This document shows, piece by piece, positions 3,472 to 64,000 of a stretch of DNA of 64,000 nt. The first letter of the stretch is position 1, and every line of letters begins with the position of its first letter. The stretch is taken from contig CALLDL010000004.1 in the NCBI GenBank assembly GCA_937998305.1, positions 7,103 to 71,102 on the forward strand, written 5' to 3'. A model generated the notes under the pieces. That model was not told the origin of the DNA and did no database searches. It saw only the letters and a program-made list of their open reading frames with translations. The position numbers and the translations under genes were made by a program. The stretch is from an uncultured Desulfobacterales bacterium. GTDB lineage: Bacteria; Desulfobacterota; Desulfobacteria; Desulfobacterales; UBA11574.

Positions 3472-3711
3472 TTATGTTGTGATATCTTTCAGTTTTTCAC
3501 CAGCCGACGGAGAAATCGAATAGTATGGATCCATGCTGGCCGGCGATACGGGTTCACCTGCAATCGATTTTTGTAAGTGTTTATGCCGGCAATGTAAACA
3601 TGTCCAATATTCCCAATGTCTTTTACAGGCATGATCCAAACAATTTCTGTAGTAGGGACAAAATACATTTCTATATCCCTTGGACTGAAGAGGTTTTCTG
3701 AATTTTCTCAT
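3472..3711 (-). CDS. small Cys/His-rich hypothetical protein
   Basis: 79-aa ORF with AAGGA 9 nt upstream of the ATG and a cluster CPYYRNCLDHACKRHWEYWTCLHCRHKH. No family recognised. Confidence 0.35.
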   Translation of the reverse strand: MRKFRKPLQSKGYRNVFCPYYRNCLDHACKRHWEYWTCLHCRHKHLQKSIAGEPVSPASMDPYYSISPSAGEKLKDITT

Positions 3712-4072
3712 TACTGAATTCCTTATCTCTGATCAATATTTACTGGCATATAGGAACATAAAATATAGATAATACCACAATGTGGTTATGTCAACTTGTT
3801 TTTGAAGCCTTTAATGGTTGTATAATTGGACGTTTCGATAGAATTGTCATACTTGCCTTCAACCTCTTATCCCATCTAATTGATTACAATTTTTCTGCAC
3901 TTGCTTCAAGGTAGTCTGACATGCGTCAGCCGTGAGTTTCATGCCCCTTTCACCCTTTTGTTATCCAGCACGCTATATTCCTCGGTAAATTGCAAAACAT
4001 CAATGACCTGCAGCATTTCATCGACCTGCTTCGTGCTAGGCCTTTTAGCAATATTGGGGTGAGAAACTTGAG

Positions 4073-9181: not shown

Positions 9182-9293
9182 CAGATCAGAGGGAGCATTA
9201 CATCCTTTCTCATGTCCATAACACTTTGAAATAAAAGCGTCCAGAGACTCAAAGATTCTGTGGATGGCATGGTTATCCGAACCGTTTTTGGGG

Positions 9294-9507
9294 GTACGTG
9301 TTCACCGGGTACGCTCCCCCGCTTCACTTTGGTGTCTGCGTGTCTGGTCATTTCAATAACTTAGCAGCGGTGGCATTCCTGCCTCCTCCGCGTTCTCCCG
9401 CGAAAAGCATGCGGGAGCTGCGGTCTCCCCCACTGCTAAGTAATTGAAATGACAAAGCCACTTTGTCAATATCGTTACACGGGGAAGCGTACCCGGTGAA
9501 CACGTAC
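9294..9507 (+). repeat. family A nested-palindrome element, copy A1
   Basis: Outer arms GTACGTGTTCACCGGGTACGC / GCGTACCCGGTGAACACGTAC; middle stem GTCATTTCAATAACTTAGCAG / CTGCTAAGTAATTGAAATGAC; apical hairpin CTCCCGC-GAAAAGCAT-GCGGGAG. Confidence 0.85.
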
Positions 9508-9560
9508 TTCTGGGGGACATGAAGAATTTATCTAACTTTAAATAATATTAAAGAATAATT

Positions 9561-10145
9561 GTGGAATTTATAAGAATTCTTGCCATTGCAGTGGCTCTGG
9601 CCATGGATGCTTTTGCGGTTTCAATAGCGATCGGTGTAAACTTAAAAAATGTCAATTCGAGACAATTGTTCCGTTTGTCCTGGCATTTCGGACTGTTCCA
9701 AGCCCTCATGCCAATTATCGGTTGGAGTGCGGGTTTATCTATACGGCGCTATATTGAACATTACGATCATTGGATCGCTTTCGGCTTGCTGGCATTTGTG
9801 GGCGCCCACATGATTAAAGAGGCCTTCCAGGATGGTAAGGCCGAAAAACCGATAAAAGATTATACAAAAGGAATGACATTGGTGATGCTTTCGGTGGCAA
9901 CCAGTATTGACGCTCTTGCTGTGGGCTTCAGTCTATCTTTGCTGAAGATATCGATTTGGATGCCGGCCTTGATTATTGGCATCGTAGCAGGTACATTTAC
10001 CCTCATTGGAATGCGGATTGGCGAACGCATCGGCGCTGCCAAGCGGTTAAGTCTTTATGCCGAAACCATCGGCGGGGTTGTTTTGATAGGTATCGGACTC
10101 AATATTTTACATGAACATGGTGCGTTATTCGCTTTTTTAAACTGA
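9561..10145 (+). CDS. mntP: manganese efflux pump MntP
   Basis: 194 aa, multi-TM, with the MntP/DUF204 signature AIAVALAMDAFAVSIA repeated as SVATSIDALAVGFS. GTG start. Confidence 0.85.
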   Translation: MEFIRILAIAVALAMDAFAVSIAIGVNLKNVNSRQLFRLSWHFGLFQALMPIIGWSAGLSIRRYIEHYDHWIAFGLLAFVGAHMIKEAFQDGKAEKPIKDYTKGMTLVMLSVATSIDALAVGFSLSLLKISIWMPALIIGIVAGTFTLIGMRIGERIGAAKRLSLYAETIGGVVLIGIGLNILHEHGALFAFLN

Positions 10146-10174
10146 ATCGTATGGCTACAGTCAGCTAAATAACG

Positions 10175-10420
10175 GTATGGGTTCACGGGGTGTGCTCCTC
10201 CGTTTCACTCCGGTGTCTATGTGTCTGGTCATTTCAATGACTTAGCAGCGGTGGCATTCCTGCCCCCTCCGCGTTCTCCCGCGAAAAACATGCGGGAGCC
10301 GCGGTCTCCCCCACTGCTAAGTCATTGAAATGACGAAGCCACTCCGCCAACCCGCCTGCCATGCATGGCACGAGCGGGCAGGTATCGTTACACGAGGAAG
10401 CACACCCCGTGAACACATAC
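10175..10420 (+). repeat. family A nested-palindrome element, copy A2
   Basis: Same architecture and orientation as A1. Outer arms GTTCACGGGGTGTGC / GCACACCCCGTGAAC. Carries an extra internal palindrome TGCCATGCATGGCA. Confidence 0.85.
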
Positions 10421-10443
10421 AAATAACGCACGGAGGGATATCG

Positions 10444-11208
10444 ATGTCGATACTTACAATGGGAATCATCGCCAGCACACTGGCTGGCCTGGCTACCGGT
10501 GTTGGCGCCTTGCCGGCGCTTGTTTTTAAGAGTGTTTCCGATAAGATTCTAAATACCATGCTTGGGGGGGCTGCAGGCGTGATGCTGGCAGCCACTTCTT
10601 TTTCGTTAATTGTTCCAGGGATAGAATATGGCAATCAGGCATGGCCGGGTTATGGTGTTTATATCGTTGTTTTTGGGATGCTGTTTGGTGCTGTCTTTTT
10701 AGACCGTATTGATAAATGGCTGCCCCATGAGCATTTTGTCCTCGGACATGAAGGCCCTTCCAGTTCCTTGAAAAGAATTTGGCTCTTTATCATTGCCATT
10801 ACCATTCACAACTTTCCTGAGGGACTTGCAGTGGGGGTTGGGTTTGGAAGCGGAGATATTGGGGCGGGAACCAGTCTTGCCATCGGAATCGGGCTTCAGA
10901 ACATGCCGGAAGGTTTGGCTGTTGCCATGCCTTTGATCGGCCTGGGTTACAGCCGATGGCGCGCTATAGGTATCGCTACTTTGACAGGACTGGTGGAGCC
11001 CATCGGCGGTGTTCTGGGGGTTGCAGCCGTCACCGTTTTTAACCCCGTCCTCCCGTTTGGCCTGGCGTTTGCAGCCGGCGCCATGTTGTTTGTTATTAGT
11101 GATGAAATTATACCGGAAACCCATTCCAAAGGAAAATCGCGTCTAGCAACCTTTGGTGTCATGATCGGATTTGTGATCATGATGGCGCTGGACAATCTTT
11201 TGGGATAA
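10444..11208 (+). CDS. ZIP-family divalent metal (zinc) transporter
   Basis: HNFPEGLAVGVGF and QNMPEGLAV motifs. Start moved to the ATG at 10444 (GGAGGG upstream), because the longer ORF would read through repeat A2. Confidence 0.85.
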   Translation: MSILTMGIIASTLAGLATGVGALPALVFKSVSDKILNTMLGGAAGVMLAATSFSLIVPGIEYGNQAWPGYGVYIVVFGMLFGAVFLDRIDKWLPHEHFVLGHEGPSSSLKRIWLFIIAITIHNFPEGLAVGVGFGSGDIGAGTSLAIGIGLQNMPEGLAVAMPLIGLGYSRWRAIGIATLTGLVEPIGGVLGVAAVTVFNPVLPFGLAFAAGAMLFVISDEIIPETHSKGKSRLATFGVMIGFVIMMALDNLLG

Positions 11209-11232: not shown

Positions 11233-11390
11233 AATGAAGGTTGATGAACTCGTAAAAAGTCAAAATTCGACGCCAAAGTAAAAAGCCTCAAATTCCCCCG
11301 CATAAAACCAGCGGGATAAAAAGGAGTGCAAATTTCAGGGAATGCAGCGCAGCGCAGAAGTTGGACTTTTTACGAAGCCGTCAAGGTTAA
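11233..11390. repeat. family G inverted-repeat element
   Basis: Arms TCGTAAAAAGTC (11250-11261) and GACTTTTTACGA (11364-11375), extended imperfectly to about 25 bp. Intergenic. Confidence 0.55.
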
Positions 11391-11477
11391 TCTTCTGTGA
11401 TAATCAGTATCCTATTAAGATCTTCGGGTTGGAATTCTTCGATGATCTTACCTTATTGTCTACGACGGGAGGACACC

Positions 11478-29425: not shown

Positions 29426-30103
29426 ATGGGCAGCAGGCAGCTCAAAAAAATACTTCCGGCACTTTTAAAAAATGAAGAATTTGAAAAGAGCCTTGAAGAG
29501 ATCTGCCTCATGCCGGCTCGTAGGGTCGTCAATCCGCTTTTTTCCTTTTTTTACAATGCGGACGAATTGATCAAATGGCGTGCAGTTACGGCAATGGGTG
29601 TCGTAGTTGCGCGTCTTGCCCATGAAAATCTTGAGTCTGCCCGCATCGTCATGCGGCGACTCATGTGGAATTTAAATGACGAATCCGGAGGGATAGGCTG
29701 GGGCTCTCCAGAAGCCATGGGAGAAATCATGGCGCGTCATGACGGACTGGCCAGGGAGTATGCTTGTATGCTTGTATCCTACATTAACGAGGCAGGCAAC
29801 TTTCTCGAATATGAGATGCTGCAACGTGGGGTGCTCTGGGGATTGGGCAGACTTGCCCATACGCGTCCTGAACTTGTTCGGGATGCAGCAGCTTATCTTT
29901 CTCCTTTTATGCGATCAAAAGATGCTGTCCATCGTGGTCTGGCAGCCTGGCTGGCTGGGGCGATACCTTCAGAGATGACAAAATCCTTACTCAAACATCT
30001 GGTCACCGACAAAGCAAGAATAAACATCTTCATCAACATGAATCTGGAGGAGCGTACCGTGGGGCAACTGGCTGACGAGGCGCTTACTCGCACTGTTTCT
30101 TAA
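29426..30103 (+). CDS. HEAT-repeat-like protein (resembles the DVU0298 family)
   Basis: 225 aa, all-helical, with a WNLNDESGGIGWGSPEAMGEI segment. Family name recalled from memory, unverified. Confidence 0.45.
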   Translation: MGSRQLKKILPALLKNEEFEKSLEEICLMPARRVVNPLFSFFYNADELIKWRAVTAMGVVVARLAHENLESARIVMRRLMWNLNDESGGIGWGSPEAMGEIMARHDGLAREYACMLVSYINEAGNFLEYEMLQRGVLWGLGRLAHTRPELVRDAAAYLSPFMRSKDAVHRGLAAWLAGAIPSEMTKSLLKHLVTDKARINIFINMNLEERTVGQLADEALTRTVS

Positions 30104-30126
30104 AAAGTATTCATCATAGATCCACA

Positions 30127-30242
30127 AGTATTCAGAGGGTGTGCTTTCCCGTGTAATAATACTGGCGGAATGGCTTCATCATTGAAATGACCAGACACGT
30201 AGACGCCAGAGTGAAACTGGGAAGCATACCCTCTGAATACTT
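30127..30242 (-). repeat. family A element, short inverted copy A3 (lacks the apical domain)
   Basis: The reverse complement aligns to both A1 flanks (..CGTCTACGTGTCTGGTCATTTCAATGA..). Outer arms TTCAGAGGGTGTGC / GCATACCCTCTGAA. Confidence 0.75.
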
Positions 30243-30293
30243 ACATTGATCCGACTATTGAGTTCTGCTGACAATTACGGTTGATGAATTGTT

Positions 30294-31265
30294 ATGTTAC
30301 CCATTCGCGACACAATATCTTCCAAAAATTATCCGATTGTAAACAATACAATTATCGGTATCAACGTTGTCCTTTTTCTGTTTGAGATGTCCCAGGGGGC
30401 CCATTTAGACCGTTTTGTTTATATTTACGGCCTGGTTCCCGCCAGATACTCAGTGCCACAAATTGCATCTTATTTTACCACCGGTCAGCAGCTTCTGTCT
30501 TGGCTCTCTTTCATGTTTCTTCACGGCGGGTTCTGGCATCTTCTGGGCAATATGTGGTCTCTTTACATCTTTGGCGATAACGTCGAAGATCGTCTGGGTC
30601 CTTTTCGGTACCTTGTTTTTTATCTGCTGTGCGGCATTACATCGGGTCTTTCCCATCTTCTTTTCAATCTTCATTCCAATATACCCACCATCGGGGCCAG
30701 TGGCGCTATTGCAGGTGTCATGGGGGCTTATTTGATTCTTCATCCCAATTCCAAAATATTAACCTTGATTCCCATTATCTTTATTCCGTGGTTTGTTGAA
30801 GTTCCCGCATTTTTCTTTCTGGGCCTTTGGTTCGTTCTTCAGTTTCTAAATGCGGCAGGCAGCCATGGGAATATTGGCGGAATTGCATGGTGGGCTCATA
30901 TCGGTGGGTTCGTTTTTGGAATCGTTTTGTTAAAGATTTTTCTTGCGTTACCCGAAACCGGGGTTAGCGGTAAAATGCGTCGTGTCACTGCTAAAAGAAA
31001 AACGCACCGCCTTCAGGTTGTTCGGCCCGGCGGCCTTGGAAAAGATCCCCACCTTTATGGAACCATTGACATTACGTCATTCGAGGCGCTTGCAGGAACA
31101 CAAAAACTAATCAATATCCCAAAAGGATTCCAAAAACGGATTGTTAAAGTGATTGTTCCTTCCGGCGTGAAAGAAGGAAGCAAACTGCGTTTAAAAGGCT
31201 TGGGTAAAACAGCATCCGACGGCCAACGGGGAGATTTGTATCTTAAGGTAATGATAACATCTTGA
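30294..31265 (+). CDS. rhomboid intramembrane serine protease fused to a DnaJ C-terminal-like domain
   Basis: Rhomboid catalytic GASGAIAG and AHIGGF. The C-terminal ~80 aa (EALAGTQKLINIP...KLRLKGLGK...RGDLYLKV) look like a DnaJ CTD. Confidence 0.8.
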   Translation: MLPIRDTISSKNYPIVNNTIIGINVVLFLFEMSQGAHLDRFVYIYGLVPARYSVPQIASYFTTGQQLLSWLSFMFLHGGFWHLLGNMWSLYIFGDNVEDRLGPFRYLVFYLLCGITSGLSHLLFNLHSNIPTIGASGAIAGVMGAYLILHPNSKILTLIPIIFIPWFVEVPAFFFLGLWFVLQFLNAAGSHGNIGGIAWWAHIGGFVFGIVLLKIFLALPETGVSGKMRRVTAKRKTHRLQVVRPGGLGKDPHLYGTIDITSFEALAGTQKLINIPKGFQKRIVKVIVPSGVKEGSKLRLKGLGKTASDGQRGDLYLKVMITS

Positions 31266-38608: not shown

Positions 38609-38721
38609 TTGTTCACCCTGTCAAATGGATTTTTTGGTATAAATTCATGGTATATGGTCACGAGGAGGCACACCCCGTGACCACCGTATCGTGTCGAAAG
38701 ATGCCATTTCTGGATGGACAC

Positions 38722-63921: not shown

Positions 63922-64000
63922 GTACGTGTTCAGGGGGTGCGCTCTCCCCGCGTCACTTTGACGTCTACGTGTCTGGTCATTTCAATGACTTAGCATAATG
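63922..64000 (+). repeat. family A element, copy A4 (cut by the window edge)
   Basis: GTACGTGTTCAGGGGGTGCGCTCTCCCCGCGTCACTTTGACGTCTACGTGTCTGGTCATTTCAATGACTTAGCA aligns to the 5' halves of A1 and A2. Confidence 0.75.

Follow-up and report, generated by a model that had tools for sequence, protein, structure and literature searches.

The window, by which we mean the whole 64,000-nt stretch of uncultured Desulfobacterales DNA that was analysed, has a G+C content of 44%, and the nearest relatives of its MntP and of the neighbouring proteins were proteins of Desulfobacterales MAGs. The mntP gene occupies positions 9561-10145 (GTG start, Pfam Mntp), and the next gene starts with ATG at 10444 (Pfam Zip). 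Repeat analysis located two nested palindromes, A1 and A2, on either side of mntP, as an earlier note on this DNA had described. The two copies have the same orientation and are 89-90% identical over 177 nt. The short distances to the start codons were also as described: A1 is separated from the mntP GTG (9561) by 53 nt, and A2 from the ZIP ATG (10444) by 23 nt. One conserved 18-mer occurred four times in the window, where 0.06 occurrences would be expected. The copies and their parts are as follows.

9294..9507, plus strand: A1, full-length copy of the probable MITE, 214 nt (repeat analysis and fold; HMM score 238)
9286..9293: left target-site duplication of A1, TTTTGGGG (7/8 identical to 9508-9515)
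9508..9515: right target-site duplication of A1, TTCTGGGG (pairs with 9286-9293)
9294..9321, plus strand: left terminal inverted repeat of A1, the 5' arm of the outer helix (28 nt, 96% complementary)
9480..9507, plus strand: right terminal inverted repeat of A1, the 3' arm of the outer helix (arms differ at 1 mismatch)
9347..9373, plus strand: 5' arm of the A1 middle helix, in the core that is near-invariant between species (inverted repeats, alignment)
9427..9453, plus strand: 3' arm of the A1 middle helix (inverted repeats, alignment)
9395..9417, plus strand: apical hairpin of A1, CTCCCGC-GAAAAGCAT-GCGGGAG (sequence, predicted fold)
10175..10420, plus strand: A2, long-form copy of the probable MITE, 246 nt, in the spacer from the mntP stop (10145) to the ZIP start (10444)
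10167..10174: left target-site duplication of A2, AAATAACG (8/8 identical to 10421-10428)
10421..10428: right target-site duplication of A2, AAATAACG (8/8 identical to 10167-10174)
10351..10382, plus strand: GC-rich 32-nt hairpin inside A2, which marks the 246-nt subfamily and elsewhere also occurs alone
30124..30244, minus strand: A3, inverted 121-nt short form lacking its centre, flanked by a stop at 30103 and the start of a rhomboid-family gene at 30294
30116..30123: target-site duplication of A3, ATAGATCC (7/8 identical to 30245-30252)
30245..30252: target-site duplication of A3, ATTGATCC (7/8 identical to 30116-30123)
63922..63994, plus strand: A4, left-end remnant of ~73 nt without a right end (HMM; longer contigs)
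38655..38690, plus strand: probable fifth copy, a right-end remnant of ~35 nt (26 nt at 92%, E 2.7e-5; HMM E 0.84, on its own not significant)

The earlier description of A3 as an inverted short form held, with the extent now set at 30124-30244; this copy lacks positions ~67 to 158 of the element, and both its middle helix and its apical one are missing. For A4, the earlier note had assumed a cut at the window edge, but in longer contigs from this genome it is a truncated remnant with no right end, and the same truncation was present in another, related species (L091). Only short incidental ORFs cross the copies, and ORF starts lie in the flanks.

The MFE folds of A1 and A2 reproduced the three nested helices previously proposed. 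In both copies, a 28-nt outer helix is followed by an asymmetric internal loop, a 27-nt middle helix, a GGCA...TGCC hairpin and an apical CCGCG/CTCCCGC stem. The terminal arms (28-34 nt) were 82-96% complementary and the inner arms (27 nt) 89-93% complementary, and the outer-helix sequences quoted in the earlier note proved correct. Predicted MFE was -122 kcal/mol for A1 and -135 kcal/mol for A2, and the MFE z of about -11.7 against shuffles is a trivial consequence of the palindromic nature of the element. Neither A1 nor A2 had a T-run beyond its ends on either strand, a result that does not fit an intrinsic terminator, and no sigma-70-like promoter was present within A1 or A2. The Rfam check returned zero matches at gathering score over the whole window, and at E<=10 over 9200-10500 it returned noise only (miRNA and bicoid models).

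Direct duplications of 8 bp bordered all three complete copies in the window (A1, A2 and A3). Among 51 full-length copies in public Desulfobacterales MAGs, the flanks of 29 were identical at 7 or more of 8 bp, compared with 0.55% when left and right flanks were paired from different copies. The duplication signal appeared at length 8 alone, with none at lengths 5-7 or 9-11, and the duplicated sites were 72% A+T. An independent set of copies from metagenome contigs carried the duplication in 7 of 17 cases. BLAST matches stopped at identical element positions in every locus, and the terminal inverted repeat (TIR) measured 28 bp, with 0-6 arm-to-arm mismatches in most copies. The 8-bp target-site duplications (TSDs) indicate that the element was inserted by transposition. 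The duplication beside every complete copy had been overlooked in the earlier note.

A MITE is defined by TIRs, a TSD of fixed length and many dispersed copies. The element described here is shorter than ~500 bp, has no coding capacity, and combines TIRs and a fixed-length TSD with dispersed copies and empty orthologous sites. The hairpin elements near mntP are thus very probably copies of a non-coding MITE of marine Desulfobacterales. A MITE hairpin had been one of the options in the earlier note, and it is the one that the TIRs, TSDs, copy number and empty sites bear out. We found no published description of the family in the literature; it is an undescribed MITE, and MITEs themselves are a known kind of element. 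A transposase supplied in trans would move the ~214-nt near-palindrome with its 28-bp TIRs, and staggered cuts of 8 bp at AT-rich intergenic targets would leave the 8-bp TSDs.

The distribution of the family was examined by scanning one genome per species for an 18-mer common to all four window copies. At least 110 genome loci carried copies, many MAGs had multiple loci, and a further 35 loci came from metagenomes. Among the genome matches listed, almost all were Desulfobacterales or 'Deltaproteobacteria' MAGs. The depth of MITE k-mers was 15-40x that of the flanking DNA. The 77 paired-end copies were intergenic, in contexts unrelated to each other, and their orientation to the flanking ORFs showed no bias (17 co-directional, 16 anti-directional, 8 divergent and 6 convergent). 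The insertion sites were thus essentially random relative to genes, an outcome that the earlier note itself had named as speaking against its reading. Short forms of 121, 133, 139, 158 and 184 nt were present along with 75-nt mini-forms, involving several deletion junctions, and solo truncated ends had assorted breakpoints. This indicates that the family decays, also by internal deletion. All 246-nt copies carried the 32-nt hairpin at a constant site and had TSDs of their own; the 246-nt form is a transposing subfamily. One apparent short allele of A2 (L111) was set aside, as its junction to another copy and its different downstream DNA make an assembly chimera most likely.

Compensatory changes in the outer helix, first noticed among the window copies, were real and family-wide. 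In a MAFFT alignment of the 51 full-length copies with the three-helix structure imposed, 93.4% of cells were paired. Changes on both sides were found at 24 pairs, compared with 9.5 +/- 1.8 in column shuffles (0/500) and with 7-13 when the partners were slid, and further pair types numbered 62, compared with 46.9 +/- 2.2 in shuffles (0/500). Calibration of the tool showed that phylogeny alone rarely exceeds these two measures. The both-sides changes fell at 20 of the 28 outer-helix pairs, 3 of the 21 middle-helix pairs and 1 of the 11 apical pairs. Covariation in the inner helices was scarce because these helices hardly vary; the near-identity of the middle and apical helices, also noticed earlier, extended to all 51 copies. 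Covariation is therefore real, and it is limited to the two arms of the terminal inverted repeat, which form the outer helix. Of the earlier proposal that covariation points to selection on the fold, the covariation itself stood, and structured RNA in the leaders of metal genes was not supported, given the confinement to the outer helix and the empty loci of relatives.

Several copies (L002, L079, L074, L056, L005_1811, window A1 and L235_60) carried 3-6 private changes each relative to their genome-mates, and these changes were perfectly mirrored between the arms. Roughly half of the compensated pair types were transversion swaps, such as G-C to C-G, without a wobble intermediate. Both patterns are consistent with one arm having been copied from its partner. 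Imperfect quasipalindromes are known to become more perfect through template switching in E. coli (PMC7202029). One homogenising route here would be intramolecular correction of the quasi-palindrome, either through template switching during replication or through conversion between the arms; another would be selection on both ends by a shared transposase. We believe that the mirrored changes are best explained by such DNA-level processes, which appear to fit the alignment better than stepwise compensation at the RNA level does. Arm homogenisation may be the main cause of the mirrored changes, a proposition on which we stand close to evenly divided, leaning slightly against.

The mismatches that remained were distributed unequally between the strands. 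Counted on the sense strand of mntP and ZIP, transition mismatches were mostly C.A (181 cells) and less often G.T (G.U in RNA; 38 cells); a small number of old mismatches inherited by many copies inflate these counts, and singletons are symmetric. Of 50 copies, 48 retained one ancestral C.A mismatch, at pair 75/139, uncorrected. A mutational bias of the general G>A type was rejected as the source of the C.A excess, as unpaired columns had no G>A excess. The predominance of C.A over G.U on the sense strand argues against an RNA fold of that strand. We do not take the asymmetry as evidence for an antisense RNA. A symmetric DNA-level process alone does not predict strand-asymmetric mismatches.

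The same alignment bears on whether the MITE has been exapted. Its transcript would then work as an RNA module in either orientation, by stabilising mRNA, as an RNase III/E processing site or as a transcriptional roadblock, and selection on the fold would act on the RNA, a proposal already made for the bcr1, ERIC and Correia elements. The predicted hairpins are very stable, the covariation is significant, the core is highly conserved between species, and the mismatch asymmetry would place G.U pairs on the strand opposite A1; compensatory changes also have precedents, in bcr1 (PMC3184786). Against this, the inner helices are without covariation, and transversion swaps make up half of the compensated changes. 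The copies are oriented at random relative to genes, so that every second one would be read in the C.A-rich 'wrong' sense, and the element has neither an internal promoter-like site nor a U-tract. Metatranscriptome contigs do contain MITE sequence, but this RNA evidence consists of multi-copy, unstranded Logan contigs assignable to neither locus nor strand. Relatives, moreover, manage without the insertions. On balance, we judge exaptation as an RNA module to be unlikely.

The distribution of sequence divergence along the element was the reverse of that in typical MITEs, in which the ends are conserved. Per site, copies differed pairwise by 0.21-0.27 over the terminal 7 nt, by 0.10-0.17 over the remainder of the TIR and by ~0.05 over the core. 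Divergence of the core (positions ~40-185) between species was no greater than within one genome, and the host MntP proteins differ by 7-25%. The low core divergence would reflect either recent movement between species or propagation of intact-core copies only. A protein might bind the core, in which lies a one-mismatch IHF-like motif; we take the probability of its occurrence by chance to be ~0.2. Its unusual conservation leaves room for a core function. Variable mirrored ends around an ultra-conserved core make a small, testable puzzle on the evolution of palindromic mobile DNA and its spread between species.

A further reading of this pattern is that the family is recognised or propagated through its fold instead of its end sequence, by a single-strand fold-back intermediate or by active arm-to-arm correction tied to transposition. 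This would explain termini that change fastest yet stay self-complementary through several private mirrored changes per copy, a core near-invariant across species, and G.T-type mismatches on one strand only. If true, the ends of a TSD-generating bacterial transposon would here be recognised by their structure. We consider this rather improbable.

As to the source of the mobilising transposase, an 8-bp duplication is common to the element and the IS66 family, and is also made by other IS families. The 28-bp TIR lies within the 20-30 bp range of IS66 inverted repeats, which begin GTAAGCG and are accompanied by 8-bp direct repeats (PMC11946415). The element termini, GTACGTG in the consensus or GTAAGTG in several copies, agree with the IS66 GTAAGCG at 5-6 of 7 positions (PMC11946415, PMC12888890), and identity to one published IS66 inverted repeat (ISPsk01) was about 8/12 only. 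Unlike the IS66 family, whose members are insertion sequences, the element carries no transposase genes, and its extreme termini are variable. From these resemblances we would tentatively name an IS66-type mobiliser as a candidate, at rather less than an even chance.

To look for a parent element, end HMMs were run over 117 and later 120 loci, in search of two ends separated by 1-3 kb. Neither the genome loci (~0.8 Mb) nor the metagenome loci (~0.7 Mb) contained an autonomous element with ends matching those of the MITE, and every lone end in the scans was a truncated remnant or a mini-form. When ORFs of 200 aa or more were clustered all against all in search of a repeated transposase, only orthologous housekeeping genes grouped together, and no IS66-type TnpC gene occurred in the loci around the copies. 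Viral contigs gave 7 chance 18-mer matches and zero copies, and annotated plasmids (distant mode) gave zero matches. IS1595-family transposases make 8-bp TSDs, and one is encoded in a strain variant (L115); it was rejected as the mobiliser, its ends being unrelated and without an HMM match.

The 8-bp duplication also bears on a different class of mobile palindrome. The intergenic, palindromic and multi-copy character of the family and its strand-asymmetric mismatches recall REP/BIME palindromes spread by RAYT (Y1 HUH) or single-strand hairpin elements in the style of IS200/IS605, and the nested 32-nt GC-rich hairpin by itself looks REP-like. RAYT and IS200/IS605 systems, however, leave no duplication where a precise 8-bp TSD is seen here, a 214-nt element with 28-bp TIRs contrasts with REPs of 20-40 nt, and no RAYT-like repeated ORF lies near the copies; we therefore hold this origin to be very improbable. 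Readings as attC-like, retron or bridge-RNA elements were set aside for their misfit to a TSD with TIRs, to dispersed copies and to the lack of linked genes.

Orthologous mntP loci were compared for the presence of A1 and A2. Two relatives (L118 and L120) with MntP 92-93% identical to that of the window had an element-free locus, with both A1 and A2 missing. The distance from the 71-aa upstream gene to mntP is 67 nt in these relatives, compared to 379 nt in the window, and the 45 nt adjoining the mntP start are conserved in them; in the window these 45 nt lie downstream of the A1 insertion point. An empty A1 allele was also present in an RNA-derived contig from another population, and the orthologous loci of L119 and L122 were likewise without the element. 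L121 and L085 (MntP 78%) share one orthologous insertion of the family, which has its own TSD, is oriented oppositely and ends 136 nt before mntP. L094 is empty at that insertion site and has a different palindromic element. The mntP-ZIP spacer of relatives holds other, unrelated sequence that is partly palindromic. A1 and A2 were fixed in near-identical populations. The idea of a conserved mntP leader element did not survive this comparison of relatives' leaders, in which the element was either missing or at another site in opposite orientation.

A1 and A2 are two separate lineage-specific insertions. A1 landed between a weak terminator-like hairpin (9261-9279, followed by a T-run) and the conserved proximal leader of mntP, and may well lie outside the mntP transcript. 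A2 landed in the short mntP-ZIP spacer, otherwise ~50 nt, and would be inside the probable mntP-ZIP transcript, so that its hairpin would stand 23 nt before the ZIP start in any read-through mRNA. A read-through mRNA over A1 or A2 would carry a hairpin of -122 to -135 kcal/mol. By analogy with other bacterial MITEs, the A2 hairpin could impede or process the mRNA (PMC3184786). Since relatives lack the insertions, the element is not required for mntP or ZIP. Its position beside metal-transporter genes is incidental, because the AT-rich spacers of relatives receive several unrelated palindromic elements.

A cis-regulatory RNA dedicated to mntP and ZIP (a riboswitch-like or protein-binding leader), the functional reading that the earlier note had favoured, is largely refuted and retains next to no probability: A1 and A2 do stand in sense orientation 53 and 23 nt upstream of starts, and mntP is preceded by a copy in a second lineage too, but that copy is opposite in orientation and at a different distance (136 nt), orthologous loci with 92-93% identical MntP are without the element, dozens of copies adjoin unrelated genes, the TSDs prove insertion by transposition, mismatches on the sense strand are C.A and not G.U, and there was no match to Rfam, the Mn riboswitch family (yybP-ykoY) included.

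The identification of the family as a probable MITE has practical consequences. Copies break metagenome assemblies, in which contigs end or turn chimeric inside them. In annotation, copies should be masked as mobile repeats, not recorded as riboswitches, sRNAs or leader structures. The copies are also a source of lineage-specific intergenic variation in abundant marine sulfate reducers, of which the -135 kcal/mol hairpin inserted between mntP and the ZIP transporter gene is an example.

Among described elements, the closest in kind is Chunjie of Geobacter uraniireducens Rf4 (Chen et al. 2008, as summarised in later papers), likewise a deltaproteobacterial MITE of similar size with size variants and stable folds. 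The summaries give Chunjie a length of 178-235 bp, 21-bp TIRs and 9-bp direct repeats, with predicted RNA folds of -98 to -130 kcal/mol and an insertion inside an operon that did not destroy it (PMC3184786, PMC10969869). Chunjie is A+T-rich, whereas the window family has a GC-rich core (~55% G+C), 28-bp TIRs and 8-bp TSDs. In TIR length, direct-repeat length and composition, the window family differs from Chunjie as described (PMC3184786).

Other small, intergenic, imperfect mobile palindromes with short direct repeats are bcr1 of the Bacillus cereus group, ERIC of Enterobacteriaceae and Correia/CREE of Neisseria, which we regard as analogues in function. These elements are often near gene 5' ends and transcribed within neighbouring mRNAs, and bcr1 also has compensatory changes (PMC3184786). 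They differ from the window family in size and are unrelated to it in sequence, and the TSD is 5 bp in bcr1 and TA in ERIC and Correia, compared with 8 bp here. The RNA-level effects of bcr1, ERIC and Correia are experimental, whereas the window family is known from sequence alone. For the mirrored arms, the nearest parallel is template switching, seen in E. coli with short engineered quasipalindromes and inferred here from sequence patterns of uncultured bacteria. In E. coli lacZ QP reporters this process perfects inverted repeats, and it would yield mirrored private changes (PMC7202029).

Several repeat families appear to use the spacers that flank mntP as insertion hot spots. In relatives, the same spacers are filled by a repeated motif (TTTCTTTACGAGCCCTTGCCACGAG...) together with other palindromic elements, and copies of this motif occur in the relatives' intergenic regions in L118 (~3800-3830), L034, L046 and L009 (L-numbers denote loci or contigs from public genomes and metagenomes). 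Three features of the window accompany the MITE, the ~214-nt palindromic mobile element:

9261-9279, weak terminator-like hairpin, inside the segment 9193-9285
10351-10382, GC-rich 32-nt hairpin (CCCGCCTGCCATGCATGGCACGAGCGGGCAGG), nested in A2, the MITE copy in the mntP-ZIP spacer
11234-11391, imperfect palindrome distinct from the MITE, with 40-nt arms that are 73% complementary

The ~95 nt adjoining A1, the MITE copy upstream of mntP, on the left (9193-9285) are missing as well from L118 and L120, two relatives' loci that lack A1 and A2, so the difference between the A1 site and the relatives' empty site exceeds the MITE alone.

The 32-nt hairpin of A2 also occurs as a solitary element, both 3' of mntP in L119 (~3650-3690) and in many RNA/DNA contigs. 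At L078 4048-4286 it is interrupted by an additional insertion. The orthologous MITE copies of the more distant L121 and L085 differ solely in this hairpin, which is present in L121 and absent from L085. The hairpin acts as if it were an independent REP-like unit, mobile or convertible. The imperfect palindrome at 11234-11391 probably represents a second family of multi-copy repeats, because the depth of DNA-metagenome k-mers rises 5-15x at 11249-11300. It is positioned directly 3' of the ZIP stop codon.

The MITE family gives rise to breaks and chimeras in assemblies. Many metagenome contigs stop within the element or change partner there, and at L111 5132-5632 the left half of A2 is joined to the right half of another copy, followed by foreign downstream DNA. 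Genuine copies are also found in a MAG labelled Nitrospinaceae (L009, L010, L019, L021 and L106), which reflects either mis-binning or misclassification, or else transfer beyond Desulfobacterales.

Two further loci carry the following features:

L115 279-1051, IS1595-family DDE transposase gene, in a strain variant of the locus just past the window's right end (past 64000)
L235 60-273, 1395-1608 and 14068-14282, three MITE copies within 14 kb

The L115 gene seems to be broken into two ORFs, of 43 aa and 193 aa. One population carries it upstream of the EmrE-family gene; L112-L114 lack it. It was rejected as a candidate, its ends being unrelated to MITE ends.

One copy, at L015 303-516, has its central segment in the opposite orientation to its flanks, as expected for recombination (a flip) between the middle-helix arms. 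The first two copies of L235 are mutually inverted with a single 265-aa ORF between them, an arrangement like that of a composite transposon.
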